62,335 nt of DNA from a virus (taxonomy: Duplodnaviria > Caudoviricetes). The notes below the pieces were generated by a model. That model was not told where the DNA came from. It did no database searches and worked only from the letters and a program-made list of their open reading frames with translations. Below are positions 1 to 62,335 of the stretch, one piece after another. The translations under genes were made by a program, and so were the position numbers. Location of the stretch: IMG/VR virus record IMGVR_UViG_3300033521_000005, positions 1 to 62,335 of that record; one strand, given 5' to 3'. Positions within the stretch are counted from its first letter, which is position 1. Every line of letters begins with the position of its first letter.

Positions 1-141
1 CCGGTCAGTCTTGTTGCTGGCGCGGCTGATTACGACTTGGAGCCTCCGACCGCAACTTTGGTGACGAAGGTCATCCGTCTGTTCTACAAGAACCGGGAGC
101 TCAAGCCGGTTGCCCGCGACGACATTGCCTCCGCGACGTTC
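1..141. repeat. Terminal direct repeat, left copy (circularisation overlap)
   Basis: Bases 1-141 match 62195-62335 except position 15 (T) vs 62209 (C). Confidence 0.95.
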
Positions 142-510
142 TACAACCCGGCGGCACCAAACGCCGAGCAACAGTCTGAGCCAATCTGTTGGAGCCAGAA
201 GGACACCACGTCCTTTTCTGTGTGGCCCATCCCGAAAAGCTCTGAGGCTGGAGCCATCACAATCCGCGCGGCGCTGAAGCCAAGCCGGAGCTCAACAGCC
301 TGTCCAGACGTTTTGTTCGAGGACTACGCGGAATACATCGCTGCTGGCGCCAAGGCCCGCCTGATGATCACGCCCAACAAGTCGTACACCAATCCCAATC
401 TGGTGGTCACTAACAACCAGCTTTACATCCAAGGCATTGGCCTTGCCCGCATTCGCGCGGCCAAAGGACATACCCGTGCCAACCAGCGTGTGAAGCAGGT
501 ACGAATCTGA
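1..510 (+). CDS. Head-completion/adaptor protein, 3' part (gene starts at 62057 and wraps; ~215 aa)
   Basis: The frame from ATG 62057 (MASYDDFLPYV...) reads through the overlap into the 37..510 ORF; it follows the capsid/adaptor genes. Confidence 0.75.
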   Translation, partial: PVSLVAGAADYDLEPPTATLVTKVIRLFYKNRELKPVARDDIASATFYNPAAPNAEQQSEPICWSQKDTTSFSVWPIPKSSEAGAITIRAALKPSRSSTACPDVLFEDYAEYIAAGAKARLMITPNKSYTNPNLVVTNNQLYIQGIGLARIRAAKGHTRANQRVKQVRI

Positions 511-525
511 ATTTAGGAGCACCGA

Positions 526-912
526 ATGGCAAAGTACGCCCACCCTGACGTTCTGGACAACGGCCCGAACTACATCAAAACCAACTGCAACAAGATGGCT
601 GTGATCTCGGCCTACACCTTTGGCGCGACCTACGCCACGGTGGCCGCCGCGATCCTTGCCGAAGCCGCGATGGCCTCTGCCGATTTCACGCTCGGCACCG
701 CCACCAACGACCGCACCCTGACCACTGCCACAGGCAAGCAGGACACCGCTGCAAACGCGACCGGAGCCTCCAGTCACATTGCATTCTTGGACACCGTCAA
801 CAGCAAAGTTCTGTGGGTGACCGAGGAAACCTCCGGCCAGACTATCACTCTGGGCAATCCCGTCAACTTCCCCTCGCTGGTCTACACGGCCAAGCAACCC
901 ATCGCCGGTTAA
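526..912 (+). CDS. Small virion fibre subunit (128 aa)
   Basis: RBS AGGAG; Ala/Thr/Gly-rich, beta-type sequence; structural region. Confidence 0.65.
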   Translation: MAKYAHPDVLDNGPNYIKTNCNKMAVISAYTFGATYATVAAAILAEAAMASADFTLGTATNDRTLTTATGKQDTAANATGASSHIAFLDTVNSKVLWVTEETSGQTITLGNPVNFPSLVYTAKQPIAG

Positions 913-931
913 ACCGTAAAGGAAATCTCAA

Positions 932-1348
932 ATGGCAAATGCACTCTACCCCCTGTGGAAAGAAGCCCTGATTACCGGGCTGGCAAACTCCGCCCTGAAC
1001 GGCACAGGCACCACTGGCGTTTTCTGCGCTTTGGTGGACACGGGCGTCTACACCTACAGCGCGGCCCACCAGTTTTACTCGTCCCTGACCGGCGTGGTTG
1101 GCACCGACCAAGAAATTGGCGCGACCAAGACCTACGCAGGCGGCCTGTTTGACGGCGGCGACATCACGTTCCCGACTGTGACCGGCAACAGTGCCGAGGC
1201 TCTGGTCATCTACGTGAAGAACGCTGGCGCCAACACCACTTGGCGTCTGGTCGCTTACATCGACACTGGTGTTACCGGCCTGCCCGTGACCCCCAACGGC
1301 GGCAACATCACCGTCACTTGGAACGCCTCTGGCATTTTCCAACTGTAA
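932..1348 (+). CDS. Small virion fibre subunit (138 aa)
   Basis: RBS AAGGA; FDGGDITFPTVTG and PNGGNITVTW motifs typical of small phage fibre proteins. Confidence 0.65.
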   Translation: MANALYPLWKEALITGLANSALNGTGTTGVFCALVDTGVYTYSAAHQFYSSLTGVVGTDQEIGATKTYAGGLFDGGDITFPTVTGNSAEALVIYVKNAGANTTWRLVAYIDTGVTGLPVTPNGGNITVTWNASGIFQL

Positions 1349-1357
1349 GGGGCTGCA

Positions 1358-2563
1358 ATGGCAGACGTTGCCCTAACCAACGTGATGCAGTCGTGCTCCG
1401 CACCGGGCACGGCTGCTTTTGGCACGTTCACCGCTATTACGGGTCGTGACACCTTTGGCAATCGAATGACTGCCGCGCAGGACTGTCACTACATGGCAAT
1501 GGCTGTGGACGCCAATGGCGTCCCGACGGGCAACTGGGAGGCTGGCGAGGGTACATGGAACGGTTCTGCCCTGAGCCGCAACATCATCTACAAGTCATCC
1601 AACGCCGATGCGGTTGTGAACTTCACTGACGCCAAGGTCTACGTCTACGGCTCTTTGCTGCCAGACGAAACCCTCTGGCTGCAAGATGACCACAGTTTTC
1701 ACCAGCCCGCTTTGTCTGTGACCAACCCAACCAACCCGCCTGCCGGGATCATGGGCCATTTTGTTCGCAGTAATGCGGGTCGATTGATGCCGGGGTTTAT
1801 TGGCCCTTCCGGTTTGGACAGTCTGTTGCAGCCTCACATTGGCCGCAACCGTGCCGCATGGTGGCAGCCGCTGGGCAATGCCACAACCGTTCCAATCACC
1901 ACCGGCATTGCTGCCGCCACCGCAGTCGGCACCGCCACCTCTCGAAATGTGGCTGTAACCAATCTGTTGACCCGCATGAAGCGGCTTGGCTATGTGTCTG
2001 CCGCGACGGCTGGTTCGCTTGCTGGGCATTATTGGGCTACCGCTGGCGCTCAGTACACCGTGGGTACCGGCGCTGGTCTTGGTGGGTTCCATTACCTTTG
2101 CCGCTTTGCCACTTCTGATGCCGCCGCAGTGGCAGGCGCTCGCGCCTTTATTGGCATGTCGAGTTCGACAGCCGCGCCAAGCAACGTCGAACCCAGCACC
2201 CTGACCAACTCGGTCGGTCTTGCCCAGCTTTCGACTGACAACACTCAGTGGTACATGGTCTACGGCGGCTCTGCTGCACAGACGGCCATTGCGTTGGGCA
2301 CCACGATTGGCGCTCCAACGCTGAACAATACGGCGTTTGAACTGGCCCTATTTGCGCCGCCCAACAACAGCGGCCAAGTTGGCTACACCGTTACCAACCT
2401 TGGAACTGGTGTTGCTGTATCCGGCACGTTGACTGGTACTGCTGGCACAGCCATCCCGTCAAGCGCAACCCTGTTGGCACCTCGCGCATGGCGAACCAAC
2501 AACGCTACCGCTTTGGCGGTTGGCGTTGATGTTTGCGGCCTCTACATTGAAACGGACGAGTGA
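1358..2563 (+). CDS. Fibre tip / receptor-binding protein (401 aa)
   Basis: N-terminal WEAGEGTW..LSR..SSN fibre-anchor motif; beta-rich C-terminal domain. Confidence 0.6.
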   Translation: MADVALTNVMQSCSAPGTAAFGTFTAITGRDTFGNRMTAAQDCHYMAMAVDANGVPTGNWEAGEGTWNGSALSRNIIYKSSNADAVVNFTDAKVYVYGSLLPDETLWLQDDHSFHQPALSVTNPTNPPAGIMGHFVRSNAGRLMPGFIGPSGLDSLLQPHIGRNRAAWWQPLGNATTVPITTGIAAATAVGTATSRNVAVTNLLTRMKRLGYVSAATAGSLAGHYWATAGAQYTVGTGAGLGGFHYLCRFATSDAAAVAGARAFIGMSSSTAAPSNVEPSTLTNSVGLAQLSTDNTQWYMVYGGSAAQTAIALGTTIGAPTLNNTAFELALFAPPNNSGQVGYTVTNLGTGVAVSGTLTGTAGTAIPSSATLLAPRAWRTNNATALAVGVDVCGLYIETDE

Positions 2564-2724
2564 TGTACGAAATCAGCTTACAGACTGGTGAGGTTGTCCG
2601 AGTCTCGGACGGTAAGGTGGTTGCGCCTTGCCAGTCTGTTGACGACGCTGATTTCGTGGCCTACATCGAGTGGGTCAACGCTGGTAACCAGCCCGTAGTC
2701 ATCGACCAACCTCCCGCAGAATAA
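2563..2724 (+). CDS. Small tail-fibre assembly chaperone-like protein (53 aa; not in ORF track)
   Basis: TGATG overlap; MYEISLQTGEVVRVSDG...DFVAYIEWVNAGNQP resembles the Y-x-x-W-x-x-x-G-N-x-P chaperone motif. Confidence 0.6.
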   Translation: MYEISLQTGEVVRVSDGKVVAPCQSVDDADFVAYIEWVNAGNQPVVIDQPPAE

Positions 2725-2733
2725 GGTGGCGCT

Positions 2734-5700
2734 ATGGCAGTGCCAACCTTAGTCACTACAGTATCGACAGGGGTCACAAGCGCCGCGCTTTCAATTACCG
2801 CGCCGTCTCTAGCGTCTGTCGCCATAGGCAACGTAATTGTTGTCAAGGTTGCCGTTGTAGGCACTGCACCCGGCATACCGAGCACATGCACAGACACTTT
2901 AGGGAATACATACACTAGGCGAGGCAGCGCCTCAGCGGGCAATGCCTTAGTAGCCATTTTTACTGCGACGGCCACAGCCGCAGGCGCGTCCGTAGTTACG
3001 GTATCTGGATTTACAGGGACAGCCACTCGAATAGACATCGTAGTTGAAAAGTGGACTGGTATTGGCCCGCTTGTCATAGACGGATCACCAGCCAACTATT
3101 TGGCAGCATCAGGCGCATTAACCAACGCCTCGCTGCCTGCGATTGGCCTAACCCGTCCAAACTCGCCAATCACGGCAATTGTTGCTTTCACTGACAACGG
3201 CGGCTCGATTGGCACTGGCGCTGGCAACACATCCAACTACACGGACAACTTTACCGGGGCAATGGGTGTCTCGTCTGAGTACCGGATTTATCCGAACGCA
3301 GGCGCGGCAATTTTTACCAACGGTATAAACCCCAACAGCGTCCAAGAGGTGATGGTTGGTATTGGCTTGCAAGCGGTTTCGCTTGGGCCAACGATTACTG
3401 CCCAGCCCACTAGCAAGGGCGTCATTCAGGGCAGCACGGTTACCTTTGGCCTGACCGCCACCTCGGAGGGCACCGGCCTTTCGTACCAATGGCGCAAAGG
3501 CGGCGTCAACATCAGTCTGGCTACCAGCGCCAGCTACACGACGCCCGTCCTTGGTCTGGTTGATGATGGCGGCTCCTACGACTGCGTTGTCACAGACAGC
3601 TACGGCACAGTCACATCGACCACTGTATATACATCTGTCAGTGCCACGGCGGTTGCTGGCCCTGCATGGCATGAGATTGCCGGTGCAACGGTTGCCGGTA
3701 CGGCCAACGGCCCGCTGGTGGCCTCTGCCGGTGGCCCAGCCACCCAGACCCTGACGCCCGGACTGTTCACCAACAGCCAGAGTTTCTTTGCGCCCACCGT
3801 AGCCAATGCGACTGGTGGCGCACAGACGCTGACCCCAAGCCTTTATACCAACAGCCAAACCTTCTTTGCCCAGACAGTTGGGCGCGGCGCGGTCAATCTT
3901 GCGCCAACGCGGCTGACCAACACCTCGAGCTTGTTTGCGCCGACTGTGGCGGTCGGTGCAGTTGCGCTGACCCCAAGTCTGGTCACCAACGCCCAGACAT
4001 TCCCAGCCCCAACAGTCACTCGCGGCGCGGTCACGCTGGCCCCGTCGCTGCTGACCAATACCCAGAGCTTTTTTGGCCCAACGGTAGCTGTCGGCGCGAG
4101 CTCGCTGGCTCCGTCGCGGGTCACAAACGCTCAGACCTTCTACGGCCCGTCGATCACGGTTGGCCCGGTTACGCTGACCCCCGGTCTGTTCACCAACGCC
4201 CAGACGTTCTACAGCCCAACAGTTGGCCGTGGCGCCATCACGCTGACCCCGGCGCTAGTCAGCAATGCCCAGACCTTCTACGGCGCCACAGTGGCGGCTG
4301 GCGGCAATTCTCTGTCTGCTCCGTTCCTGACCAATAGCCAGACTTTCTTTGCCCCGACGGTTGGCCGAGGCGCAGTTACGCTGACGCAGATTGCGTTCAA
4401 CAGAAGCAACCGCATTCCCAATTCTGTTGCTGCCGGTGCTGTCCTTGGAGTCATTGGCTCCGGCGGCGCAGCGCCTACCGGCTGGTCTATTGGGGCAACA
4501 GTTGGCGTAGTTCGGGAGGTTGTTGGGGTTGGCTCGCTCCCAGACGGGAATCCATACGTTGACATCCGGTGGTACGGAACCAACTCGTCGGCTGCAACAA
4601 TTTTCCCCGACCTGTACTTTGCGCCGACATCGCTAAACATCGCCGCATCTGTTGGGATGACTGTTTCGGCTGGCTTGTATATCGAGCAGATTGCCGGAGC
4701 CAGAACCGGATTTACATCGACCACCAACAAGGTGAGTGTCGGCGGCTGGACTGCCGCAGGTGGGTTTATCGAGGCAACTGGCGTAACGGTAACCAGCGGC
4801 ACCAGAGCAACCGTAACGCGCACTTTGACTGGCGTTGCCAGCGCAAGGACGGCTGGATATGTCGATATGTCCGTCCCGGCCTCTGCCACGGTGGACATTA
4901 CGCTGCGCTTTTCTCAGCCGCAGCTTGAATACGGGACGCCAACAGAATACATCCCGACGTCCGGCACGGCTGTTGAGGCGGCAACGGTCAACCAGTTCTT
5001 CCCGGCGTCTCTTGGGGTGCTGCTGGCCCCGAGCCTGCTTGGAAACAGCCAGACCTTCTACGGCTCAACGGTCACTGTTGGCCCTGCGACCCTAAGCCCG
5101 CCGCGCCTGACCAACGCCCAGACGTTCTATGGCGCAACGGTGGCCGGTGGAGTGGTTGGCGTTGCCCCGGCACTGTTTACCAACAGCCAGACCTTCTTTG
5201 CCCCGGCGGTCGGTCGCGGCACGGTCACGCTGACGCCAACGCTGCTGGCGAGCTCGGGCTCGATCTTTGCGCCAACGCTAACCAAGGGCGCGGTCAATCT
5301 GTCGCCGCCGCTGTTTACCAGCGCCAATACCTTCTACGCAGCCACTGTCGGTCGTGGCGCGATCAGCCTGCTGCCAACCAAGCTCACCAACGCCCAGAGC
5401 TTCTTTGCGCCGTCGGTAGGCCAGATCACGCACACGCTGGCCGGTAATAACGTCGCCACCGCGACGACGTCCACCTCGGCTGCCGTCACTACCGCTCACA
5501 AACTGACCGGCGTAAACGTCGCTCAGGAAACAACTTCGACCTCCGGCTTTGCCGGACACAGCCTGCCACTGATTGGCGCCAATGTTGCGCAGCCCACGAC
5601 ATCTACCTCGGGCGCGGTCACTCAAACCCATGCGCTGACCGGCGCCAATGCTGTGCAGGACACTGCCAGCACGGCAGGACAGATCACGCCTGTTGTTGCC

Positions 5701-5982
5701 CTGTCTGGCAGCGACTCCTCGATCTGGCATGAATCGACGGCTGGCCGCGCAGACCAGATTCACGTCCTTGGCGGCGCAAGCACAGAACAGCCAACGCTTT
5801 CGTCTGTCGGGTACACGTTCCCCTACACATTGACCCCGGCTATTTACGTGGCCTCGGTGACAATCCAAGGCAACGTAGCGAAGGTGGCGGCGACAGCGAA
5901 GGCTTTGCCACCGCAGCCCAACAGATTGCCCGGACGGGTGGTCGCTGCCAACAACCGGGCCGTCGTGGACATGCGGAATTAA
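2734..5982 (+). CDS. Repeat-rich fibre scaffold protein with Ig-like domain (1082 aa)
   Basis: I-set-like motif PTITAQP..SYQWRK..DGGSYDCVV; ~15 copies of a 23-aa repeat and ~6 of a 22-aa repeat. Confidence 0.75.
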   Translation: MAVPTLVTTVSTGVTSAALSITAPSLASVAIGNVIVVKVAVVGTAPGIPSTCTDTLGNTYTRRGSASAGNALVAIFTATATAAGASVVTVSGFTGTATRIDIVVEKWTGIGPLVIDGSPANYLAASGALTNASLPAIGLTRPNSPITAIVAFTDNGGSIGTGAGNTSNYTDNFTGAMGVSSEYRIYPNAGAAIFTNGINPNSVQEVMVGIGLQAVSLGPTITAQPTSKGVIQGSTVTFGLTATSEGTGLSYQWRKGGVNISLATSASYTTPVLGLVDDGGSYDCVVTDSYGTVTSTTVYTSVSATAVAGPAWHEIAGATVAGTANGPLVASAGGPATQTLTPGLFTNSQSFFAPTVANATGGAQTLTPSLYTNSQTFFAQTVGRGAVNLAPTRLTNTSSLFAPTVAVGAVALTPSLVTNAQTFPAPTVTRGAVTLAPSLLTNTQSFFGPTVAVGASSLAPSRVTNAQTFYGPSITVGPVTLTPGLFTNAQTFYSPTVGRGAITLTPALVSNAQTFYGATVAAGGNSLSAPFLTNSQTFFAPTVGRGAVTLTQIAFNRSNRIPNSVAAGAVLGVIGSGGAAPTGWSIGATVGVVREVVGVGSLPDGNPYVDIRWYGTNSSAATIFPDLYFAPTSLNIAASVGMTVSAGLYIEQIAGARTGFTSTTNKVSVGGWTAAGGFIEATGVTVTSGTRATVTRTLTGVASARTAGYVDMSVPASATVDITLRFSQPQLEYGTPTEYIPTSGTAVEAATVNQFFPASLGVLLAPSLLGNSQTFYGSTVTVGPATLSPPRLTNAQTFYGATVAGGVVGVAPALFTNSQTFFAPAVGRGTVTLTPTLLASSGSIFAPTLTKGAVNLSPPLFTSANTFYAATVGRGAISLLPTKLTNAQSFFAPSVGQITHTLAGNNVATATTSTSAAVTTAHKLTGVNVAQETTSTSGFAGHSLPLIGANVAQPTTSTSGAVTQTHALTGANAVQDTASTAGQITPVVALSGSDSSIWHESTAGRADQIHVLGGASTEQPTLSSVGYTFPYTLTPAIYVASVTIQGNVAKVAATAKALPPQPNRLPGRVVAANNRAVVDMRN
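3748..5430 (+). repeat. Coding tandem repeat, 23 aa (L-x-P-x-L-x-T-N-x-Q-T-F-F/Y-x-P-T-V), interrupted by a ~200-aa insert
   Basis: Read directly in the translation: 9 copies, a split copy around the insert, then 6 copies. Confidence 0.85.
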
Positions 5983-5994
5983 GGAAACAGAACC

Positions 5995-6276
5995 ATGAGC
6001 ATCCTTGGCAAATACAACAAGCAGCCGGTCGAAGTCCAAGACTACGACATTGATTTCAACGACTACCTTGAGTTTCACAACGACACCGCTGTCAGTTTTT
6101 CGGCTGTTGCCGAGACCGGCTTGGTAGTGGAGGCGTCCAACCTGACGGACGGCGTGGTCAAGGTTTTTGTATCTGGCGGAACAGACGGCACCACCTACAA
6201 GGTGAGCGCCACAGTCACTACGCAGGGCGGTCGCGTCAAGCAGGGCGACATCCTTGTGAAAGTGAAGGAAGTTTGA
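5995..6276 (+). CDS. Fibre-adaptor/collar-like protein (93 aa)
   Basis: KQPxExxDYDIDF...SGGTDGTTYKV..TT..GR motif; paralog of 8172..8483. Confidence 0.7.
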   Translation: MSILGKYNKQPVEVQDYDIDFNDYLEFHNDTAVSFSAVAETGLVVEASNLTDGVVKVFVSGGTDGTTYKVSATVTTQGGRVKQGDILVKVKEV

Positions 6277-6368
6277 GGGACGTAAGAGGGCTCAGCCCCC
6301 TAAAATCCCTCGGCAAGCGATGACTTCAACGTCGCTATTTCTCAACCCCGGCAATCTTAGGAGTCATC

Positions 6369-6797
6369 ATGCCCGGTTTTTCTAAAGCTCTCGCCCAGTC
6401 GATCTTCGACGCAACCCTTGCCGCCTCGCGCACCAGCTTGTCGGCCAAACCCGGCGTCTATATGTCGCTGCACACCGCCGCCCCGGACGACAACTCTGGC
6501 GGCAATGAGGCCACCTACGCTGGCTATGCCCGCGTGAATGTCGCATCGTCCATGACGTCGTCTGTCACCGGCTCCGCACCGGAACAGTCTGTTACCGCGA
6601 CCAACAGTGCGGACATCAACTTCCCGGCATCGACCGGCGCCAACCAGACTGTGACCCACTGGGCCATTTGGTCTGACCAGTCTCTGGGCACTGGCGCTTA
6701 CCTGATGTACTCGGGCGCTCTGTCCTCGAGCCGCACGGTGCAGGCCGGTGACGTTGTGGTGATCCCAGCCAACCAACTCCAGATTGCACTGACCTAA
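6369..6797 (+). CDS. Small fibre subunit (142 aa)
   Basis: LHTAAP..EATYAGYAR..N..I.FP..HWAIW motif; paralog of the next gene. Confidence 0.75.
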   Translation: MPGFSKALAQSIFDATLAASRTSLSAKPGVYMSLHTAAPDDNSGGNEATYAGYARVNVASSMTSSVTGSAPEQSVTATNSADINFPASTGANQTVTHWAIWSDQSLGTGAYLMYSGALSSSRTVQAGDVVVIPANQLQIALT

Positions 6798-6799
6798 TC

Positions 6800-7231
6800 A
6801 TGGCTGGAATGTCCAAGTACCTCGCGCTCGCGTTGTTCAACGCTACGTTGAACCCGACGCGATCTGCCCTGACGCCTCCTGCTGGGCTTTGGCTTGGACT
6901 GCACACTGCCGCGCCCAGCGATGCAACTTACGGCACGGAAGCGACCTACGCTGGCTACGCGCGACAGGCTCTCAACAGTCTGACCGCAGAGACCCAGAAC
7001 GAGACCGTTGGTGGCGATGTTGACGTCTTGGTCACCAATGGCTCCGCTTTGGTGTTCCCGGCATCAACAGACTCGTCATCGCAGTCCATCAGCTATTGGT
7101 CGATTTGGGACGCGCAGAAGGCTGGCGACGGGAACGTCTTGTACTCTGGGCCTCTTGGCTCCCCGCGTCTGATCTCGTCCGGTGACAGCGTTGTTGTGCC
7201 AGAGGGCAACATTGCAATCCTGCTGAAATGA
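6800..7231 (+). CDS. Small fibre subunit (143 aa)
   Basis: Clear paralog of 6369..6797 (LHTAAP, EATYAGYAR, FPAST, YSG). Confidence 0.75.
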   Translation: MAGMSKYLALALFNATLNPTRSALTPPAGLWLGLHTAAPSDATYGTEATYAGYARQALNSLTAETQNETVGGDVDVLVTNGSALVFPASTDSSSQSISYWSIWDAQKAGDGNVLYSGPLGSPRLISSGDSVVVPEGNIAILLK

Positions 7232-8175
7232 CAGCCAACTACATCAACTCAGACGAAATCAACTCAGTCCCGTTTCCGGGGGCTGAGTCTGGTGCTTCTC
7301 TCGTCCAGTTGGTTGGTGAGATTCAGGCATCGGGCGCACTCAGTAGCGTCACGCTGCGCTTGCTGGCAACGGCGGCCATTGCCTGTACGGCAACGACGTC
7401 CATCCCGGCGGCAAAGGCCCGTTTTGGCGTAACACCGACGACCGAGTGTGTGGCGGCTACAACCGCTACCGCTCAAAGTAAGGTGCGGTTGTCGCCAGTT
7501 GTGCAGCCAGCCATTGCAGACTCCTTTGCATCTGCAATCTGCAAGCGGGCTGTTGGCGGGAGTGCAACGGCAGCAGCGGTGCAGACGGCACCCGTGTCTA
7601 AGGTGATGGTCAGCCTTGGGGCCAGCGCGGCGCCAGCCGCAGAAACAACAGCCTTTGCGTTCCGTAAGTGGCCGGTGTACCCAAATGCGGTTTTTGCTTT
7701 GGCCTCTACTTATGCGCAGGTTTTGTCAAAGGTCTTGCTTGGGGCCTCCACCCAAGGGCAGCCCGTCTCGTCTGTTGCTCCAATAGAGCGGCATCAGATT
7801 TCAGCTATCCAGAGCGCATCCGTCGCATCAACGGTCAACGCAGTTGCGCACCAGTCCGTCTCCGGCAATGCGGTGGCGGCGGCTGTTGCGCCTGCATTCA
7901 CAAGCCGCGCGTATCTGAGGACGCCCGTCACAATCTCCGCTGTGGCGAATGGCCTAGTCAACGCGATTGACCTTGTCCCGCGCAGCGCAAGTGTTGCGGC
8001 GTCCGCAATAACGCCCAACATCAACGCCGCCCTTGTGATGCACTTTGCAGCCGCCACAGTCGCAACAGTTTCCTCCGCCATTGCGGCAGCAGATTACTCA
8101 GCCACCATGCCAGCCCCGCTGGAGCGGCGCATGGCTCTTTCTCCAATCCTTAGACGTATGGAGGTGACAGAGTGA
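7228..8175 (+). CDS. Ala-rich degenerate-repeat fibre scaffold (315 aa)
   Basis: ATGA overlap; N-terminal IN..EIN motif; ~20-aa Ala-rich periodicity. Confidence 0.55.
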   Translation: MTANYINSDEINSVPFPGAESGASLVQLVGEIQASGALSSVTLRLLATAAIACTATTSIPAAKARFGVTPTTECVAATTATAQSKVRLSPVVQPAIADSFASAICKRAVGGSATAAAVQTAPVSKVMVSLGASAAPAAETTAFAFRKWPVYPNAVFALASTYAQVLSKVLLGASTQGQPVSSVAPIERHQISAIQSASVASTVNAVAHQSVSGNAVAAAVAPAFTSRAYLRTPVTISAVANGLVNAIDLVPRSASVAASAITPNINAALVMHFAAATVATVSSAIAAADYSATMPAPLERRMALSPILRRMEVTE

Positions 8176-8483
8176 TCCTCGGCACCTATGAAAAACAACC
8201 CGCCGACTCCTTGGACTATGACATCGACTTCTCAGCGATTCTTGACGCTGGAGATACGCTGGCATCGGTAGGGAGCCCTCCCGTCCCAACCCCACTGAGT
8301 GTTGTCGTGGCCCCGGTTGGGCTCACGATTGGCCCGACATTCGTGACCGAGGACGGCAAGACAATCAAGCAATGGATTTCCGGCGGAACCAACCGGATCA
8401 CCTACAAAATCACCCTCACTGCGACAACCAGTGCGGGCCGCGTAAAGCAAGTTGAATTTGTTGTCCGCGTAAAGGACGTTTGA
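8172..8483 (+). CDS. Fibre-adaptor/collar-like protein (103 aa)
   Basis: Paralog of 5995..6276 (KQP..LDYDIDF, SGGT..TYKI..TT.AGRVKQ). Confidence 0.7.
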   Translation: MILGTYEKQPADSLDYDIDFSAILDAGDTLASVGSPPVPTPLSVVVAPVGLTIGPTFVTEDGKTIKQWISGGTNRITYKITLTATTSAGRVKQVEFVVRVKDV

Positions 8484-8484
8484 T

Positions 8485-11400
8485 ATGGGCACCCAGTTAT
8501 TCAAGAACAACGCGAGCACAACTCTCAGCGGCTCGCTCAGCAATGTCCAGACCGCGATCATTGTTGCCAGCGGTAGTAGCTTCCCCGCAATCACGGGCAG
8601 CGACTACTTCTACGCGACCATGTTTGAGGTGTCTGGCACCACGGAAATCAACATTGAGATCGTCAAGGTCACGGCTGTTGTTGGAAATAACTGGACTGTT
8701 GTGCGCGGGCAAGATGGCACTTCCGCGCGAATCCGCGACGGCGTCACGCCCTGCTACATTGAGCTCCGGCTGACGGCTGCTGGCGCGGGCCTGATGCTCC
8801 AGAAGGACAACAATCTGTCCGACCTGACAAGCGCAGCGACAGCCCGCACAAACCTTGGCCTTGGCTCTCTGGCAACGCAGGCCGCCAACAGCGTAACCAT
8901 CACTGGCGGCACCATTGCTGGCGTCTCCATTACGTCCATTGATTCGACAACCACCATTCAGGACAACCTTGACGCGACCAAGCAGGTGCAGTTTGAGGTC
9001 TCCGGCATTACGACCGGAACTGTCCGCACACTGACCATCCCCAACGCCAGCGGCACTCTCGCCCTGACGTCTGATCTGTCGGCGGGCTACCAGCCTCTGG
9101 ACTCCGATTTGACGGCTGTTGCGGGTCTGGCCGCTACTGGCATCATCGCTCGCACTGGCACCGGGGCAATGGCTGTTCGCAGCATTGCCCAGCCAGTATC
9201 TGGCATCACCATTACCAACGGCGACGGCGTGGCCGGGAACCCCACGCTTGCTCTTGCAAACGACTTGGGCGCGGTAGAGGGCCTGACTGGCACCGGCTTT
9301 GTCCGGCGTACCGCTGCCGATACTTGGTCTGCGTCGTCTCTGGTGGATGCCGACATCCCCGGCGCATTGACTGGCAAGAGCTACAACGGCCTGACGCCAT
9401 CCGCATTGGCAACCGGGTTCTCTCTGGCTGGCGGGACAACCAGCAAGACCCTGACGGTCTCCAACACCATCACTCTGGCGGGAACAGACGGAACCACCAT
9501 CACGTTGCCCAACGTGACCGGAACCGTGGCCCTGAACAACCAGACGATGTATATCGGCACGACGGCGCTGACGATCAACCGCGCCAGCGCCTCGATTGCG
9601 CTGACTGGAATTGCCAGCATTGACGGCTCTGCCGCCAGCGCAACCACCGCAACCACCGCGACCAAGGCCACAAACTTTGTCGGCGGCAATGCAACGACCC
9701 TGCTGGGCGCACTGCCATACCAGTCCAACACAGACACCACCAGTCTGTTGTCACCCAACATTTCTGCGTCCAAGCAGTTCCTTGCCATGACCGGCACCGG
9801 AACCAACGGCGCGGCTCCAGTCTGGAGCTCTGTCGCCAAGGCGGACGTCGGTCTGGGCAGCGTGGAAAACACAGCCCTGTCCACTTGGGCTGGCTCGGCC
9901 AATATCACGACTGTTGGAACTGTTGGAACCGGCACTTGGCAGGCGTCCGCAGTTGGCATTGGCTATGGCGGAACTGGCGCGACCACCAAGGCCGCAGCAT
10001 TCAACGCCCTGACGCCCATGACGACTCTGGGTGACCTCGAGTACCACGACGGCACAAACGCTGTCCGTCTGGCTGGCAACACGACCACCACCAAGAAGCT
10101 CCTGCGCTCGACCGGCAACGGCACGACCTCTGCCGCCCCGGCTTGGGACACGCTGGTGGACAGCGACCTTCCTTCCGCACTGACCGGGAAGACTTACAAC
10201 GGCCTGAGTCTGACGGCAGCAGCGACCGGATTCACGATTGCTGGCGGAACAACCTCGAAGACCCTCACGGTCAACAACACGCTGACCCTGTCTGGAACAG
10301 ACGCCTCCACGCTGAACATTGGCGGCGGCGGAACCTTGGGCACTGCGGCCTTTACCGCCTCCACTGCCTATGCCCCGGCAGGCGGATCGACCAGCATTGC
10401 CACGGTTGGCACCATCACGGCTGGCACTTGGACTGGCAGCGCGGTAGGCGTCAGCTACGGCGGGACTGGCGCGGCCACCAAGGCGGCGGGCTTCAACGCA
10501 TTGTCGCCAATGACCACGCTTGGCGATCTGGAGTACCACGATGGCACCAACGGCGTCCGTCTGGCCGGACATACGGCGGCTGCCAAGCGGTTCCTGACCC
10601 AAACTGGAACAGGAACTGTCTCGGCTGCTCCGGGGTGGAACACCATTGTCGATGGGGACATCCCGAACCTGACAGGAAAGACCTACAACGGGCTGACGCT
10701 CACGGCCAACGCAACAGGTTTTTCTGTTGCAGGCGGCACAACAGCCAAGACCCTTACCGTCAGCAACAACATCACTATCTCCGGCACCGACGGCTCAACA
10801 CTGGCTATTGGGGGCGGCGGGACGCTGGGCACTGGCGCTTACGCGACTATTGCCAACTACGCACCGCTGGCGAACCCGACCTTTACTGGCACCCCGGCGG
10901 CGCCTACGGCTGCGGCTGATACAAACACCACGCAGCTTGCCACCACTGCTTATGTCATTGGGCAGGGCTACCTCAAGGCCACAACCGCCGGTACGACCTA
11001 CCAGACTCAAGCTGGCATGTCGTCGTATCAGACAACGGCTGGCATGTCGTCGTATCAGACAACGGCTGGCATGTCGTCTTACCAGACTGTTGCTGGCATG
11101 TCGTCGTACCAGACGACCGCCGGAATGTCGGCGTATGCGCCTCTGTCTGCCCCTTCGTTCACCACGTCACTGACCTCTGGCGGCCCAGCCACCATCGGCA
11201 GCACACTGGCGAACTACTGGACAATTTCTGGCATTGCAGCCGCAGGCACCCCAACCATTCAGGTGGCCGGTTCTGACGTCAACATCCACGCGCGGATTGC
11301 TGGCAAGGGCACTGGCAACGTCATCCTGCGAGCAAATGGCGTCGATGTCATTTCCGCATGGAACCCTGCCACTGCCGTCAACAACCTGCTCATCAGCGGC

Positions 11401-50301: not shown

Positions 50302-50367
50302 ACGCTCCTCACAATCAGGCAACAGCGCCCGGTAATGCCCTGACGGTCAGGGCATTGGCTGGTGCTG

Positions 50368-52069: not shown

Positions 52070-52152
52070 TGCAACTCCTAGCCAGTAGCGACACTGGCAA
52101 AGCCTCATCAGTACGGGAGCAACCCGCAGACCCCCCGAAGGGGGTTTCGGCA

Positions 52153-53289
52153 TCAGGCCACGTCAACCTTGGCCCTGTCTTCGTCTTTCCAGTCGAGGAA
52201 GAACTTGTTCTTCACTCGGCTGAAGTCCGCTCCGGCTTTCAGCAACTTCGTTGCATCGAGCAGGAATCGGGTGGACATCACCCGCTGCATCTTCAGTTCG
52301 GAAATACGTTTCCGAACAGCCCAGCCCCAAGCCAACAGATCGGGGGCAACGGCTTTGCGTTCAAAGCTGGTGTCGTAGTTCACGAAGTGACGACCGGCAC
52401 GGAACCGATCAAGAAAGGCTTCGTCAAGCCTTTCCCGTCCGGCATAAGCTGCCGAGGCACCGTTGCCGAAGGTGTTGGCACAAGCAATGCAGATGAAATC
52501 TGCATGGCGGGTCACCTTGCTGTTGCCACGGCGTTGCGGCAGGAAGAACGAGCCGTTAGCCAGAGCCTGATTGATGAACAGCAGGGTGTTGGGGTCAGCC
52601 GCATCGACTTCGTCGAACAGGAAGACGCCGCCGTTTTCGTAGAGCCTGACGAAGTCCGACTCAACGTAGTTGAAAGCGCCGCCGTCAGTTGGCAACAGCC
52701 AACCGGACAGAACAGATTCCGACATTCCTGCTGTGCAGGAAACCGACGCAAACTCGCGGCCCAGAGCTTCAGCCACTTGGTGAGCCAAGTGGGTTTTGCC
52801 GGAACCGGCAGGGCCTACCAACAGAATGTTGAGGCCGCATCCTGCATCGAGCAGGACGTCCTGAAATTCAGGACGAACGTGACCCGACGGTTTCCATTCG
52901 GAACCGTCAAGCCGCTTGACCTCGAATTTCATAACGGGAGACCGTTCAAGGGCAGCCTCCACTTCGTGGAGAACGATGGCCCGAACCTTGTCTTCGTTCA
53001 CTGCATTGCCAGCTAAGCTGGCAAACAGAGCGCCGATCTGGTTGGCAACAGCCGTCTGATCGACGTTGGGAGCCGACGGAGTCGGAGCGGGAGCCGATGG
53101 CATAGGAGCCGAAGGCTGGACATGCTCCATTGCAGAGCGGATGGCAGCCTCATCGTAAGCTCCAAGGAGCTTATCGACGCATTCGGTTTTCTTGGCTCGC
53201 TCATGGTCGAAACCGACCGAGCCGCTGTTCAAGAACTTGAACAGATCGAGGATGTATGCCTTTGGCATACCGAGTAGTTGGTCACGCAT
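52153..53289 (-). CDS. MoxR/CbbQ/CobS-type AAA+ ATPase
   Basis: GPAGSGKT, FLFDEVDAA, ANTFG.G, LD.A.LDRF. Confidence 0.9.
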   Translation of the reverse strand: MRDQLLGMPKAYILDLFKFLNSGSVGFDHERAKKTECVDKLLGAYDEAAIRSAMEHVQPSAPMPSAPAPTPSAPNVDQTAVANQIGALFASLAGNAVNEDKVRAIVLHEVEAALERSPVMKFEVKRLDGSEWKPSGHVRPEFQDVLLDAGCGLNILLVGPAGSGKTHLAHQVAEALGREFASVSCTAGMSESVLSGWLLPTDGGAFNYVESDFVRLYENGGVFLFDEVDAADPNTLLFINQALANGSFFLPQRRGNSKVTRHADFICIACANTFGNGASAAYAGRERLDEAFLDRFRAGRHFVNYDTSFERKAVAPDLLAWGWAVRKRISELKMQRVMSTRFLLDATKLLKAGADFSRVKNKFFLDWKDEDRAKVDVA

Positions 53290-53746
53290 TTGGTTTTCCT
53301 CCGGAAAGTGACAGTGGTTGAGAACGTCCAGACAAACCCCCTACGCTGCTAAAGCAGCGACGAAGCGGTGCCGTTGCAGCGAAAGGGGTTTGTGCTTGAC
53401 GCTCTGAAAGAGCGTTGTGTTAGGTGACGCCTCACGGCGTGGCCTGTGTGTATCTTGGTGGCGGAAGTTGTCCGCTCACCTCTCGGACACAGAGACGAAG
53501 TCTCTGAACCTTCCCTTCGGTTCGGGCTTAGAAACCCTAGTCAGCTTTGCTGATGCCTCACGGCATGAATGCTGACTCCTCTGGAGTCCGACGCTACCTC
53601 GCCGTTAGGGCCGAACCGCTCGGTTCGATGCGTCACCGTCAGACTCTGCTTAGCCCCTTCTACGAAGGGCTTCACCTATCGGTCTCACGGTGCTTTAGCA
53701 CCTACTGGTCGGGAAGTTCAGCGTTACCGCCGAATCGACGTTTTCA

Positions 53747-53786
53747 ACTGTAATGGCTGGCTTGTCACTGTGTCAAGTCCCCTTGT
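53747..53786 (-). promoter_or_regulatory. Sigma70 promoter for early operon with operator-like site
   Basis: Minus strand TTGACA-18-TACAGT; TCAAGTCCCCTTGT at 53773-53786. Confidence 0.6.
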
Positions 53787-53964
53787 TTTCTGTGACGAAG
53801 TCACAGGAGGTTGTGATGCGAGGCGTGATGCGGTGCGCAACGCGAAGGAAGGCCGGGAAAAACCCCTGATCCCAAACAGTCCGGGCACAGCTTCGCTGTC
53901 ACATGCTGTTCAAAGGAGCTAGAGAGGAGAGATAAGTACCCTAAAGGGTAGGGAGTCATTCAGG

Positions 53965-53977
53965 CAAGTTATTGATT
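53965..53977 (-). promoter_or_regulatory. IHF consensus site
   Basis: AATCAATAACTTG matches WATCAR-N4-TTR. Confidence 0.6.
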
Positions 53978-54156
53978 CCAAAGGAATCAGCAGTACGGTG
54001 AATGGGAAATGTCACGACATTGCACACACCGCGTCACGCCACACGAAGTTTTGCCTTCGGCAACAGGTCAACAGACTGTTATTCCTAGCTGCCAAATCTG
54101 GCCTCTCTATCCCTTTGGGATAGCCCACACGACCCAGTTTTGTCACAGTCTGGAGC

Positions 54157-54670: not shown

Positions 54671-54935
54671 TTGGAAAACAGGCCGGGGGCAGGGTTGGAG
54701 TCCCGTCGGGTACAATTTTTTGCGAAAGTCCCACAACAGGGCTTGTGAAGTGCGGATCAGGGCATTACAGTCGCCCACAGCATGGATGCTCATCGGTCTG
54801 TGCAGCGTAGAGAAGCGCCCTCAAGCGGTGTGTGAGGCCAACTACCGCACCTGAAGGCCCTCATCCCTCCTCCTGTGGTGGGCTGATTCAGGCGTATCGG
54901 TTCCGCGTCAAGGGCCGTTGAACATTGAAAGTCGT

Positions 54936-55244
54936 ATGGCAACACGGAAGGTCGTCAAAAAGTCGGTGGATCAGGACATTGCGGAATACCGCGATAAGCG
55001 CCGCGCTGCCCACGGCGAATTGGTGCGCGAGTCGATCCAGACGACCCAACTGGTGAATCTGTTGCAGGACTTTGCCCTCGGCAAGTCCAAGGCAAAGATG
55101 ACCGCCATCCGGCTGAAGTCCATCGAAATGCTGCTCGACAAATCTGTGCCCGACCTTGCGTCAGTGAAGCACGATGTCGAAGTGCAGCACGTCACGTTCA
55201 ACATCAACACCGACTTTGTCGCGCCAAAGACGGTCGAGGCTTGA
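54936..55244 (+). CDS. terS: Terminase small subunit (putative)
   Basis: Overlaps terL; R..IQ...L...LQ..LL.K..PDL motif. Confidence 0.6.
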   Translation: MATRKVVKKSVDQDIAEYRDKRRAAHGELVRESIQTTQLVNLLQDFALGKSKAKMTAIRLKSIEMLLDKSVPDLASVKHDVEVQHVTFNINTDFVAPKTVEA

Positions 55245-56686
55245 TGCAGGACGACAACGCTCCCATCACGTACTACCCACCGGGGCCGGTGGCGGCAGCG
55301 TTCCATCGTTCTGAGAAATTTGTCCGCGTTTTGAAGGGGCCGGTCGGCTCCGGGAAATCGTCGTCGTGCTGCGTTGAGATCGTGAAGCACACGATGAAGC
55401 AGAAACCTTGGAAGGGCGTTCGCCGCGCCCGCTGGGGCGTGATCCGCGCGACCTACCCAAGCCTGAAGACCACGACGATCAAGACGTGGGAAGCGTGGTT
55501 TCCGGGGCACATAGCCCCGATCAAGTACGACACCCCAATCATCAGCCGGATGCGGATCAAGGACTGCGGCGACGGCTACGGGATGGACTTGGAAGTGATC
55601 TTCATTGCGATGGAGACCGCCCAAGACACCGACAAGCTGAGATCGCTCGAGCTCACCGGGGCGTGGATCAACGAAGGGTCGGAAGTGCCGAAGGAAGTCT
55701 TCGACATGGTGACCCAGCGCGTAGGCCGCTTCCCCCCGAAGCGCGAAGGCGGGCCCGTCCATCCCTGCGTCATCATGGACACCAACCCGCCGGATGACGA
55801 CTCGTACATCTACAAGTTCGACGAAGAACAGCCCGACGGGTTTGAGTTCTTCCACCAGCCCGGTGGTCTCATCAAGATTGTCGAAGGGGACAAGGCTCGC
55901 TACGAGCCAAACCCCGAAGCGGAGAACGCGCTCAATCTCCCGCAGGGCTACCAGTATTACTTCAACATGCTGGCGGGCAAGACAGACGACTGGATCAAGG
56001 TCTTCGTGCTTGGCGACTACGGCACCACTGCCGACGGCAAGCCGGTCTACCCCGAGTACAACGACAAGGTTCACGTCGCCGCCGAGGAGCTAAAGGTCAA
56101 CCCCGGCCTGCCGATCTACCTCGGCTGGGACTTCGGGCTCACGCCAAGCTGCATCATCGGACAGATTTCGGCCAAGGGCCAGTTGCTCATCCTCGAGGAA
56201 CTGGTGGCCGAGGATATGGGTATTCGCCAGTTTGCGACAGACGTCGTCAAGCCTGTGCTCCTCAACAAGTACCAGCGTAACAAGTTCATTTCGGTGGGCG
56301 ACCCCGCTGGCATGAACAGATCGCAGACAGACGAGCGAACCTGTTTTCAGGAACTGCTCGAGGCTGGGATTTCAACCGAGCCAGCCAATACCAACGACTT
56401 CATTCCGCGCCGTGAATCGGTGGCTTTCTACCTGAACCGCATGGCGTCAGGCGAGCCCGGATTCCTGATCTCGCCCAACTGCCGCACATTGCGCAAGGGC
56501 TTTATCGGTGGCTACCGCTACGAGCGGCTGAAGGTTGCTGGCGAACGCTACCGGGATCGCCCGGTGAAAGACAGATTCAGTCACCCGCACGACGGCCTTC
56601 AATACCTGTGTTTGAAAGCCCGCGACGGTGGCGTCAACACGCGGGCTCGCAAGGTCAGCAAAGCATCAAGTAAGGGTTGGGTGTAA
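55241..56686 (+). CDS. terL: Terminase large subunit
   Basis: GPVGSGKS Walker A, W.NE Walker B, DTNPP, GWDFG, DPAG, SH..D.LQY. Confidence 0.93.
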   Translation: MMQDDNAPITYYPPGPVAAAFHRSEKFVRVLKGPVGSGKSSSCCVEIVKHTMKQKPWKGVRRARWGVIRATYPSLKTTTIKTWEAWFPGHIAPIKYDTPIISRMRIKDCGDGYGMDLEVIFIAMETAQDTDKLRSLELTGAWINEGSEVPKEVFDMVTQRVGRFPPKREGGPVHPCVIMDTNPPDDDSYIYKFDEEQPDGFEFFHQPGGLIKIVEGDKARYEPNPEAENALNLPQGYQYYFNMLAGKTDDWIKVFVLGDYGTTADGKPVYPEYNDKVHVAAEELKVNPGLPIYLGWDFGLTPSCIIGQISAKGQLLILEELVAEDMGIRQFATDVVKPVLLNKYQRNKFISVGDPAGMNRSQTDERTCFQELLEAGISTEPANTNDFIPRRESVAFYLNRMASGEPGFLISPNCRTLRKGFIGGYRYERLKVAGERYRDRPVKDRFSHPHDGLQYLCLKARDGGVNTRARKVSKASSKGWV

Positions 56687-60983: not shown

Positions 60984-60999
60984 TCAGCCTGAGTGAAAT

Positions 61000-61028
61000 T
61001 GGTCGGGGCTACGGCCCCGGCCATTTCT
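61000..61028 (+). terminator. Terminator-like hairpin after capsid gene
   Basis: TGGTCGGGGC-TACG-GCCCCGGCCA-TTTCT. Confidence 0.6.
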
Positions 61029-61041
61029 AAGGAAATACCCC

Positions 61042-61353
61042 ATGAAGTTGATGCGCCGCAAACGCGATGGGCGGGTTGCTGTATTTGACGCCCGGATTGT
61101 TGCCGACGGAGATTGGGAGCTCTTTGAAGAAGCCCCAGCACCACAGCCCGAGCCTCCTGCGCCCGAGCCAAAGCCTGAGCCCGCAAAGCCCAAGGCCCCA
61201 CAGATTCCCCGCTCTCTGCGCCCCGTGAAACCCTTGGTGCGCGAGACCGATCCAGAACAGGTCACCGCTCTGTTTGAGCCGCCTGTTATTCAAGAGACCC
61301 AGACTGCGAAAATGACCCCGGCTGATAAGGCCGAGGACGTACAGTCGGAGTAG
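61042..61353 (+). CDS. Pro-rich hypothetical protein
   Basis: RBS TAAGGA; in the head operon. Confidence 0.6.
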   Translation: MKLMRRKRDGRVAVFDARIVADGDWELFEEAPAPQPEPPAPEPKPEPAKPKAPQIPRSLRPVKPLVRETDPEQVTALFEPPVIQETQTAKMTPADKAEDVQSE

Positions 61354-61364
61354 TGAGGTAACCC

Positions 61365-62054
61365 ATGCTTGCAAGTGAAATCATTGACCGCGCCCGCGTT
61401 GTTTTGAATGACGCCGACGGTGTGCGCTGGCTGGATGCAGAGTTTTTCAAGTGGATCAACGATGCTCAGCGCGTGATTGCACTTGTCCGCCCGGACTCTG
61501 TTGTCTCCAACACATCCATCACGCTGGTGCTTGGCACCAAGCAGACTCTGCCTGCTGACAGCCTGCGTCTGTTGGACGTGGTGCGGAACCTGACCTCCAC
61601 CGGTGCCGGTGGCCGCGCGGTACGCCATGTGGATCGTGACGTTCTGGACACCCAGAATCCTGACTGGCACGGCGACACCCCGGCTGCCACGATCAAGAAC
61701 TTCGTCTACGACAACCGCGACCCCAAAACCTTCTACGTGTACCCGCCCTCGCAGGCCGGTGCCAAGCTCGAGGTCATCTACTCCAAGAACCCAACAGACG
61801 TCTCGGCTCTGGGCTCGAGTCTGGCCGTGGCCGACATCTACGCCGACCCGCTGCTGAACTACGTTCTGTACCGGGCCTATTCCAAGGACGCTGAGTTTGC
61901 GCAAAACGCCCAGTTGTCTGGAGCCTACCTTGGCGCCTTCAACTCCATGTTGGGCATCAAGACCTCCAAGGACGCGGCCTACTCCCCAGACCTGCACAGC
62001 AAGGGCCGCACAACGGCCCCCAATGCCGCAGCCCTCCAAATGGGTAGTGTCTAA
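61365..62054 (+). CDS. Head-tail adaptor protein (DUF6682-like)
   Basis: L.D....RW......WIND.Q......RPD; FYVYPP; Y.LYRAYSKD.E. Confidence 0.75.
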   Translation: MLASEIIDRARVVLNDADGVRWLDAEFFKWINDAQRVIALVRPDSVVSNTSITLVLGTKQTLPADSLRLLDVVRNLTSTGAGGRAVRHVDRDVLDTQNPDWHGDTPAATIKNFVYDNRDPKTFYVYPPSQAGAKLEVIYSKNPTDVSALGSSLAVADIYADPLLNYVLYRAYSKDAEFAQNAQLSGAYLGAFNSMLGIKTSKDAAYSPDLHSKGRTTAPNAAALQMGSV

Positions 62055-62056
62055 GC

Positions 62057-62335
62057 ATGGCCTCCTACGACGACTTCCTCCCTTACGTCCTCACGGATGT
62101 GCCGGGGTGCGCCGAAATCGTCGCCATCCAAGCCATCCGCAACACCGCCATCGACTTCTGCGAGAAGTCCTTGGTGGTGGAGGCTGACCTTGACCCGGTC
62201 AGTCTTGTCGCTGGCGCGGCTGATTACGACTTGGAGCCTCCGACCGCAACTTTGGTGACGAAGGTCATCCGTCTGTTCTACAAGAACCGGGAGCTCAAGC
62301 CGGTTGCCCGCGACGACATTGCCTCCGCGACGTTC
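62057..62335 (+). CDS. Head-completion/adaptor protein, 5' part (continues into 1..510)
   Basis: ATG 62057, open to the window end and in frame with 1..510. Confidence 0.75.
   Translation, partial: MASYDDFLPYVLTDVPGCAEIVAIQAIRNTAIDFCEKSLVVEADLDPVSLVAGAADYDLEPPTATLVTKVIRLFYKNRELKPVARDDIASATF
62195..62335. repeat. Terminal direct repeat, right copy
   Basis: Matches 1-141 with one mismatch. Confidence 0.95.

Follow-up and report, generated by a model that had tools for sequence, protein, structure and literature searches.

The DNA considered here is the whole of IMG/VR record IMGVR_UViG_3300033521_000005, a tailed-phage sequence (Duplodnaviria; Caudoviricetes) of 62,335 bp with 58.7% GC and a completeness rating of 100%, called the window below and G000 in comparisons among genomes. 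Both strands carry a large excess of a non-palindromic hexamer, AACAGA, with its reverse complement TCTGTT. The excess is a trait of the clade of phages to which the window belongs, newly found here, and sub-lineages of that clade bear their own dialects of the word. A sequence-only reading of the window had drawn attention to the word and had suggested that it might be a protective or self-marking code.

The Phage and Its Genes

The window phage is temperate and lambdoid in organization. The stretch occurs in four wetland-metagenome sequencing runs, all from one study. GenBank phages show no DNA match to it except a 110-bp linker, and the closest large terminase (TerL) among them is 45% identical to that of the window. 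The main features are:

54.9-62.3 kb, continuing through 1-0.5 kb: head and packaging genes
54918..55244, plus strand: putative small terminase (TerS), 108 amino acids, called from its position upstream of TerL
55244..56686, plus strand: TerL, the marker that defines the word-bearing clade
526..15360, plus strand: tail and tail-fibre block, most genes of which have no tblastn match in the relatives
24534..32078, plus strand: polyvalent virion protein of 2514 amino acids with an LPD38 domain, whose gene holds 27 copies of the word
32216-32306, plus strand: attP-like fragment that scores 23 bits (E 0.027) against the Rfam tRNA clan and looks like the 3' half of a long-arm tRNA
32320-33336, minus strand: tyrosine integrase, beside the fragment resembling a tRNA-Leu 3' half
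35413..36036, minus strand: YqaJ-like exonuclease of the recombination module, 46-63% identical across relatives
38294-38950, minus strand: CI-like repressor with an S24 peptidase domain
39915..40349, plus strand: stand-alone CHC2 zinc-ribbon protein of 144 amino acids, of the DnaG zinc-binding type (CPAH...HCFGGC)
42353..42865, plus strand: DUF968/HNH endonuclease
43783-44271: early helix-turn-helix (HTH) protein
44857..44867, minus strand: two overlapping direct copies of the word, reading TCTGTTCTGTT on the plus strand
51197-53289, minus strand: CobS-like AAA_5/CbbQ_C ATPase with a DUF7192 partner, upstream of the packaging genes

The recombination module comprises the single-strand annealing protein (SSAP) Sak, the YqaJ exonuclease, and a protein resembling single-stranded DNA-binding protein (SSB-like). 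Between Sak and YqaJ lie an SPFH/Band-7 protein (36046-36846, minus strand) and a protein with a Tad2-like (anti-Thoeris) domain (37040-37525, minus strand). RusA and internal virion proteins are also encoded. The zinc-ribbon gene is flanked by genes for a DUF1376 initiator and a 320-amino-acid helicase consisting of DnaB_C only, and the zinc-ribbon protein itself contains no primase catalytic domain. The putative TerS has no match in PHROGs. ARAGORN makes no tRNA call in the window; the attP-like fragment matches tRNA-Leu genes or attP regions of Ralstonia, Acinetobacter, Pectobacterium, and E. coli phages at 80-97% identity over 30-58 nt, and narrows the host no further than Proteobacteria-type tRNAs.

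Abundance and Sharpness of the Word

The plus strand bears 89 copies of AACAGA and 87 of TCTGTT, 176 in 62,335 bp, where zero-order composition predicts 19.6; this 9.0-fold excess (z 35) places the word first among hexamers. Two further null models take account of coding. In a synonymous shuffle of 300 rounds, codons were permuted within each gene, so that amino acids and per-gene codon usage were kept and spacers were left untouched, and 50.5 ± 4.4 copies were obtained, with a maximum of 65 (z 28.7). A tighter, junction-keeping shuffle of 200 rounds, in which the base that opens the following codon is fixed as well and Leu, Ser, and Arg codons stay within their families, gave 83.2 ± 5.7 copies and a maximum of 101 (z 16.2). 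The word ranks 1 of 2080 hexamers in both. The over-representation reported in the sequence-only reading persists under the codon- and amino-acid-preserving shuffle by which, on its own terms, it could have been refuted, and no rival hexamer equals the word.

Called genes contain 158 copies (about 27 expected) and the remaining DNA 18 (2.4 expected), in keeping with the earlier description of a word found on both strands, within genes and between them. On coding strands AACAGA occurs 7, 29, and 32 times in frames 0, 1, and 2, and TCTGTT 30, 3, and 51 times. The common readings are xAA CAG Axx (29), xxA ACA GAx (32), TCT GTT (30), and xxT CTG TTx (51), so that four of the six frames are used and the word is scarce only in the two that require AGA or Cys codons. 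The 30 in-frame TCT GTT pairs bear out the use of AT-ending codons that had been remarked upon. Coding strands slightly favor TCTGTT over AACAGA (84 vs. 68), which agrees with the frames that are usable.

The word is sharply defined. Its 18 one-letter variants all fall well short of its excess, the highest being GACAGA (62 vs. 32) and AACAGT (52 vs. 27). The pentamer AACAG, noted earlier as commoner still, occurs 356 times against 94.7 expected. Flanking bases show a preference, [C/G]AACAGA[C/T], with 89 copies of CAACAGA and a T preceding the word only five times, but these flanks add little.

The word had been described as densest in the early operon, with at least 41 copies there and ten example positions. 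All ten positions are among the listed copies, and the interval 44238..54085, which holds minus-strand early genes and their spacers, contains exactly 41. Only in raw density does the description stand, the interval carrying 4.16 copies per kb compared with 2.57 elsewhere (Poisson p 0.011). The effect is weak: the excess over local composition is 11.4-fold compared with 8.4-fold, and genes in this interval exceed the synonymous shuffle 4.6-fold, no more than those of other regions (4.5-9.0-fold). The word is present at lower density in the tail block (29 copies vs. 4.6 under the zero-order model), and genes within 1-15400 hold 30 copies compared with 6.4 under the synonymous shuffle.

Other words are conspicuously rare in the window. 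Several of restriction type are avoided, with GCCGGC (54-64 expected from the two synonymous shuffles), GCGCGC (32), CGGCCG (29), TGGCCA (32), and CCATGG (15) all absent and CAGCTC found three times (39-47 expected). Hexamers containing CCWGG occur 0-1 times against 28-64 expected. GCCAGC is in excess (178 vs. 98), apparently as a codon-level by-product of GCCGGC avoidance.

Arrangement along the Chromosome

Distances between neighboring copies follow a near-exponential, Poisson-like distribution with a mean of 355 bp and a coefficient of variation of 0.94, which corresponds to about one site per 700 nt on each strand. The largest gap, 1712 bp, lies within expectation (1.4 such gaps expected). 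Strands are balanced in the window (89:87) and likewise in its relatives G001 (67:75) and G003 (58:53), and the window shows neither polarity along the genome nor clustering toward one end. When six genomes are pooled, inverted pairs have no fixed spacing, and a dimer-type site was rejected on that ground. In the same pool, direct pairs separated by 4-12 bp are somewhat common, at 2-10 per distance compared with about 3.6 expected; besides the overlapping copies at 44857..44867, close direct pairs in the window begin at 48133/48142, 36898/36907, and 42172/42177.

Distribution among Related Phages

Searches with TerL gave 80 loci from IMG/VR and 21 from genomes in GTDB, and ten full or partial relatives were fetched. 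Before scoring, 16 rows were taken out as duplicates or second rows of one record. A record was considered enriched if the core ACAGA exceeded expectation at least 1.8-fold with a Poisson p below 1e-3. This survey of related phages, which the sequence-only reading had recommended, reveals a clade-limited trait: the core is enriched in 23/34 records whose TerL is at least 60.5% identical to that of G000, in 2/17 at 56-60.5% identity, and in 0/44 below 56%. Ten of the 11 misses in the closest group are head-gene fragments of 2-8 kb with an excess of 1.5-2.6-fold, and the figure of 23/34 is therefore limited by statistical power.

Within the clade the ACAGA core is constant over phages spanning 49-65% GC, and the letters on either side of it vary by sub-lineage. 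The window shares the spelling A-ACAGA-Y with G001, G005, L016, and L089. R-ACAGA-T is found in G003, G004, and about a dozen relatives of 50% GC, T/C-ACAGA-G (Y-ACAGA-G) in G002, L057, and L039, and C-ACAGA-C in L035. Sister subclades, with TerL 57-59% identical, bear other sharp 7-mers at about 8-20-fold excess. Examples include GATCAAG in the group L045-L047 and L051 (22 copies vs. 2.2 in L047, where neighboring words are not enriched), ACTGATG in L048 (11 vs. 0.6), and AACAGCT in G006 (27 vs. 3.4), with AACAGCT and ACAGCTG as the words of G006 and L043. Given these other private 7-mers, private words seem to be general across the TerL family of the window.

Words of another kind were noted in further loci. 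CAACGAC in L009, ranked as a chance-level item, is distributed 9:1 toward one strand and is probably codon-driven; the CCWGG-containing words of L034 were ranked likewise. In L097, a contig from a Sphingomonas metagenome-assembled genome (MAG), GGTTTGA and its complement total 22 copies in 15 kb (0.9 expected) and form inverted pairs 11 nt apart (e.g., 350/361, 5344/5355, and 7025/7036); these look like a palindromic element of the REP (repetitive extragenic palindrome) type, unrelated to the phage word.

Turnover and Retention of Sites

Individual sites are short-lived on the scale of the clade. G001 spells the word as G000 does and carries it at an equal density; of the G000 sites alignable to it, only 10/61 coincide with a site there, and the corresponding figures are 6/44 for G005, 7/58 for G003, 1/30 for G004, and 1/22 for G002. 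Closer pairs behave otherwise. In genomes 86-88% identical, word sites are retained at 39/53, 17/24, 15/21, and 18/32, compared with fractions of 0.42-0.47 for 7-mers of the same composition in the same pairs; at 79-80% identity, retention of the word drops to background (9/34 and 5/21). Above-control retention in close pairs, together with turnover farther out, shows that copy number is held by weak purifying selection on each site. An excess that outlives shuffles preserving amino acids, codon usage, and codon junctions, an equally strong excess between genes, and the retention of sites above matched controls together establish selection acting on DNA rather than protein, as the sequence-only reading had proposed.

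Some tail-fibre modules are free of the word or nearly so. The tail-fibre genes of G001 include a stretch of 4460 bp without any copy (0.0014 such gaps expected), and the last 5.7 kb of G003 hold a single one. The ACAGA core is near expectation in these stretches (4 vs. 6.1 in G001 and 18 vs. 12 in G003). The word-poor modules look recently acquired, and no donor word is prominent inside them. Relatives of the tail proteins were also tried as same-host controls; none carries the word, and at 36-55% identity they are too distant to be informative.

Bacterial Genomes and the Search for a Host

A prophage search of GTDB species genomes found only contigs binned into MAGs, a search with the integrase only one metagenome contig of 1.6 kb, and a search of the capsid atlas only viral clusters. 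In a 1-Mb MAG that includes the contig of a relative, CAACAGA occurs 15 times on the 14.9-kb phage contig and 68 times in the remainder, against 101 occurrences there of the reversed control word; the link between this MAG and the phage rests on binning and is weak evidence for host identity. The five bacterial genomes behind distant TerL loci show densities of 0.02-0.23 per kb. Among 401 evenly sampled genomes of one class, searched for one spelling, the maximum is 0.44 per kb compared with 1.43 in the window, and in the four densest AACAGA ranks only 74th-191st among hexamers. This indirect evidence favors the word being a property of the phage lineage rather than of the host.

Candidate Readers

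The genes present in every ACAGA genome compared are those for TerS, TerL, portal, a scaffold-like protein, capsid, two or three virion proteins, and the YqaJ exonuclease, the last being the only non-structural gene common to all five ACAGA relatives compared. G002 lacks the replication, lysogeny, and SSAP genes of G000 and has a set of its own, including a SNF2-type helicase, a ParB-like protein, a VRR-NUC-like protein, and Erf, yet it carries a dialect. TerS, TerL, portal, capsid, and virion proteins are common to both genomes. Different replication and annealing genes combined with shared head genes and a dialect indicate that the trait travels with the head/packaging block.

Of the proteins in this block, TerS alone is a classical sequence reader. 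Because the trait follows head and packaging genes across mosaic genomes, TerS and the packaging machinery become the leading single candidate. A TerS homologue is found in 27/33 word-bearing loci and, among loci without the word, only in L034. Several of the six word-bearing loci without a TerS match have TerL at or near a contig edge, and L039 has 1.8 kb upstream. A pac-like cluster of words at terS was considered and rejected, since only G002 has its densest stretch there; G000, G005, and G004 have no such cluster, and G001 and G003 have modest clusters upstream.

Several other proteins can be set aside. The CobS/CobT-like AAA+/VWA pair occurs in all four complete clade genomes, in G002 as a diverged AAA_5 protein and a CobT_C/VWA protein (9781-13740) with the same role as the CobS-like/DUF7192 pair of the window, but it is also found in L047, L053, and L059, which lack the word. 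The CHC2 zinc ribbon occurs in just 2/4 complete word-bearing genomes, G000 and G001, and so fails as a clade-wide reader; G003 has the same initiator and helicase as G000 without it. The match of G002 to the 2514-amino-acid polyvalent protein is 30% identical over 16% of its length, and a nucleic-acid enzyme domain is absent from this protein and from what is listed for its 120 homologues. Neither the early HTH protein (43783-44271) nor the excisionase has a counterpart in G002. The polyvalent protein and the early HTH protein were those named in the sequence-only reading as possible readers of a self-marking code. The general idea of such a code agrees with the dialects and with the word-free tail-fibre modules, but the readers put forward for it do not span the clade. 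The DUF968/HNH protein, a weak candidate, is conserved in G001, G003, and G002, but G007, a relative without the word, has it too.

Interpretation and Alternatives

The reading preferred here, to which a probability of about 0.45-0.5 is assigned, takes AACAGA as the local spelling of a clade-specific word, N-ACAGA-N, that would act as a dispersed recognition site for a sequence-specific factor inherited with the phage lineage rather than with the host. DNA-level selection would keep the word at high copy throughout the chromosome, and the number of copies, not their place or strand, would be what counts. The reader, presumably a protein, would mark or handle phage DNA as self along its full length. 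That the phage itself encodes the reader is given slightly less than even odds. The packaging machinery is the best single guess within this reading, although taken by itself it is unlikely; a terminase could then engage phage DNA at many places rather than at one pac site.

The arrangement recalls DNA uptake sequences (DUS) of the Neisseriaceae, which have dialects, and uptake signal sequences (USS) of the Pasteurellaceae, both kinds being 9-12 bp long. Like these, the phage word is short and asymmetric, occupies both strands and all usable frames in a roughly Poisson manner with number mattering over place, varies among lineages around a common core, and is sparse in recently acquired DNA. 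It differs in being 6-7 bp long, present about once per 350 bp, and borne by a phage rather than a competent bacterium, with no uptake receptor and no excess seen in the sampled bacteria. The stoperators of cluster A mycobacteriophages (13 bp, 24-36 copies, oriented with transcription) offer another partial parallel. They too are asymmetric sites scattered genome-wide, and they bind a phage protein, but the word of the window is 6-7 bp long, has 176 copies, and follows no orientation rule.

A number of points weigh against dispersed recognition by a lineage-inherited factor. To our knowledge no mechanism requires some 176 sites for a terminase. Judged from sequence, the reader of the word remains at the level of a candidate, TerS included. 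The association of TerS with the word is fully confounded with phylogeny, and words do not cluster at terS in 5/6 ACAGA genomes nor in seven sister-subclade loci. The dialects also follow GC content (49-65%) and may therefore follow hosts. The survey of 401 bacterial genomes covered one class and one spelling, and a host-encoded reader stays compatible with it. Finally, L034, a 10.4-kb locus with a TerS homologue and a TerL 65% identical to that of the window, has no ACAGA excess (0.8-fold). L034 is rich instead in CCTGGA and CCAGGA (29 and 25 copies vs. 6.9), two words that the window avoids completely.

The alternative that survives best, unlikely as it is, holds that the word is a host Chi-like sequence, which would tame a helicase-nuclease of the RecBCD/AddAB type or another translocating nuclease, protect linear phage DNA, and promote RecA-dependent circularization and concatemer formation, the dialects then reflecting different hosts. 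The sequence-only reading had listed such a site among its possibilities. Lambdoid phages without an anti-RecBCD gene, including those with a nuclease and annealing protein, are often rich in Chi (PMC12315714). The window has YqaJ, Sak, and an SSB-like protein, and no anti-RecBCD protein is recognized among its scanned open reading frames (ORFs), a scan that did not extend to a six-frame search for Gam/Abc2-type proteins. [quoted passage not shown]

Chi-rich lambdoid phages (the LLS, MD8, and Gifsy-1 class) are indeed the nearest phage case described, sharing with the window a short, non-palindromic, enriched word, a temperate lambdoid character without a recognized RecBCD inhibitor, module-wise gaps, and one-letter variants between host groups (PMC12315714). 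The resemblance fails in the layout of sites. The phages reported to lack anti-RecBCD genes bear 8-32 Chi sites, nearly all of them on a single strand and gathered toward one end of the genome, with strand ratios of 20:3, 32:0, or 23:2 and at most 25-32 sites in the Chi-rich ones (PMC12315714). The window, with its strands at 89:87 and without end clustering, differs from every Chi-rich phage described there, and its roughly 176 A-rich rather than G-rich sites amount to a density several-fold higher (PMC12315714). In favor of the Chi reading, a headful phage with permuted ends would presumably need both orientations throughout. No host genome with the word was found among those sampled: neither the MAG containing a relative nor 406 further genomes are enriched for it, and the core stays constant across phages of 49-65% GC.

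An improbable second alternative supposes that the copies are scattered lagging-strand priming sites, the template strand reading 5'-(N)TCTGT(N)-3', and that an extended site would have to be enriched in order to recur about every 700 nt per strand. Known primase sites are trinucleotides that need no enrichment: 5'-GTC-3' for T7 gp4, 5'-GTT-3' for T4 gp61, and 5'-CTG-3' for E. coli DnaG. TCTGT-N contains both GT-N and CTG, the spacing on each strand is of the order of Okazaki fragments, the variable letter 5' of ACAGA may sit at the cryptic template nucleotide position, and G000 and G001 encode the DnaG-type zinc ribbon beside a DnaB-like helicase. On the other side, that zinc ribbon occurs in half of the complete word-bearing genomes, with G003 keeping initiator and helicase without it. 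Prim-Pol is found in 0/5 genomes and no primase catalytic domain among the scanned ORFs, a scan without a six-frame search for TOPRIM families. The trait, moreover, follows the head module and not the replication module.

Somewhat less probable still is a target for a DNA modification, nicking, or restriction-type enzyme, at which dense marks would protect the phage. The form, an asymmetric site of 6-7 bp with an A next to last, is that of MmeI/BREX-type sites. Target-recognition domains drift by single-letter changes of site, and the word changes between lineages by single flanking letters; the HNH endonuclease (DUF968) is conserved in G000, G001, G003, and G002. That gene is also present in the non-word relative G007. 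Members of four methyltransferase families, PF01555, PF00145, PF02384, and PF07669 (N6_N4_Mtase, DNA_methylase, N6_Mtase, and Eco57I), were matched in 0/5 genomes (G000-G003 and G006), whereas control genomes were matched, so that the suggestion of a modification target made from the sequence finds no such enzyme in the four complete clade genomes. Restriction targets, furthermore, are normally avoided, as GCCGGC and CCWGG are in the window, while the word shows a 9-fold enrichment. A partial likeness is offered by HIP1 (GCGATCGC) and its variants among the highly iterated palindromes of cyanobacteria. They share hyper-abundance through genes in every frame, lineage variants, and a debated cause with the phage word; they are, however, palindromic, chromosomal, and linked to methyltransferases, and the phage word is non-palindromic, phage-borne, and unaccompanied by the four methyltransferase families sought.

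Least probable of all is a non-functional by-product, either of mutation or repair biased by sequence context (of the very-short-patch kind) or of the avoidance of other words: Poisson-like placement on both strands, equal coding and non-coding enrichment, and the many avoided palindromes, which shift other words as the GCCAGC excess accompanying the loss of GCCGGC illustrates, would agree with it, but a 9-fold excess of one sharp hexamer is far above known repair effects, there is no strongly depleted one-letter source (AATAGA 10 vs. 6; AACAAA 26 vs. 25), a DNA polymerase is unseen among 59 ORFs compared with Pfam and PHROGs (without a six-frame polymerase search), and a bias of host replication would be host-wide, yet the word is lacking in the sampled bacteria and in some tail-fibre modules.

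Returning to recognition by a factor inherited with the phage lineage, a broader and decidedly tentative proposal, doubtful as it stands, extends it to tailed phages at large. Tailed-phage lineages may carry private, fast-evolving identity words of 6-7 bp, repeated by the hundred in genes and spacers alike. Their reader would be phage-encoded and passed on together with the head and packaging genes, TerS being the first suspect. Such words would let phage machinery recognize its own chromosome at any point, as distinct from host DNA and from competing phages, and reader and spelling would co-evolve in each sub-lineage, giving A-ACAGA-Y, R-ACAGA-T, and Y-ACAGA-G within the clade and GATCAAG and ACTGATG in sister clades. 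The limited literature collection searched contains no description of such phage-lineage words.

Significance

Selected words that extend over whole genomes are few (Chi, uptake sequences, FtsK-orienting polar sequences [KOPS], and HIP1), and each has exposed a machine that reads entire chromosomes. The word described here is distinctive in being owned by a phage lineage, with dialects, with decay and re-formation of sites, and with gaps in tail-fibre modules. If its reader belongs to the host, the dialects would be Chi-like sequences of uncultured bacteria and would provide a new route for linking phages to hosts. If the reader is phage-encoded, the word would represent a new layer of self/non-self discrimination in phages, acting in packaging, protection, or priming, and could serve as a signature for assigning mosaic fragments to lineages, as a means of dating module exchange, and as a recoding constraint to be respected in phage engineering.

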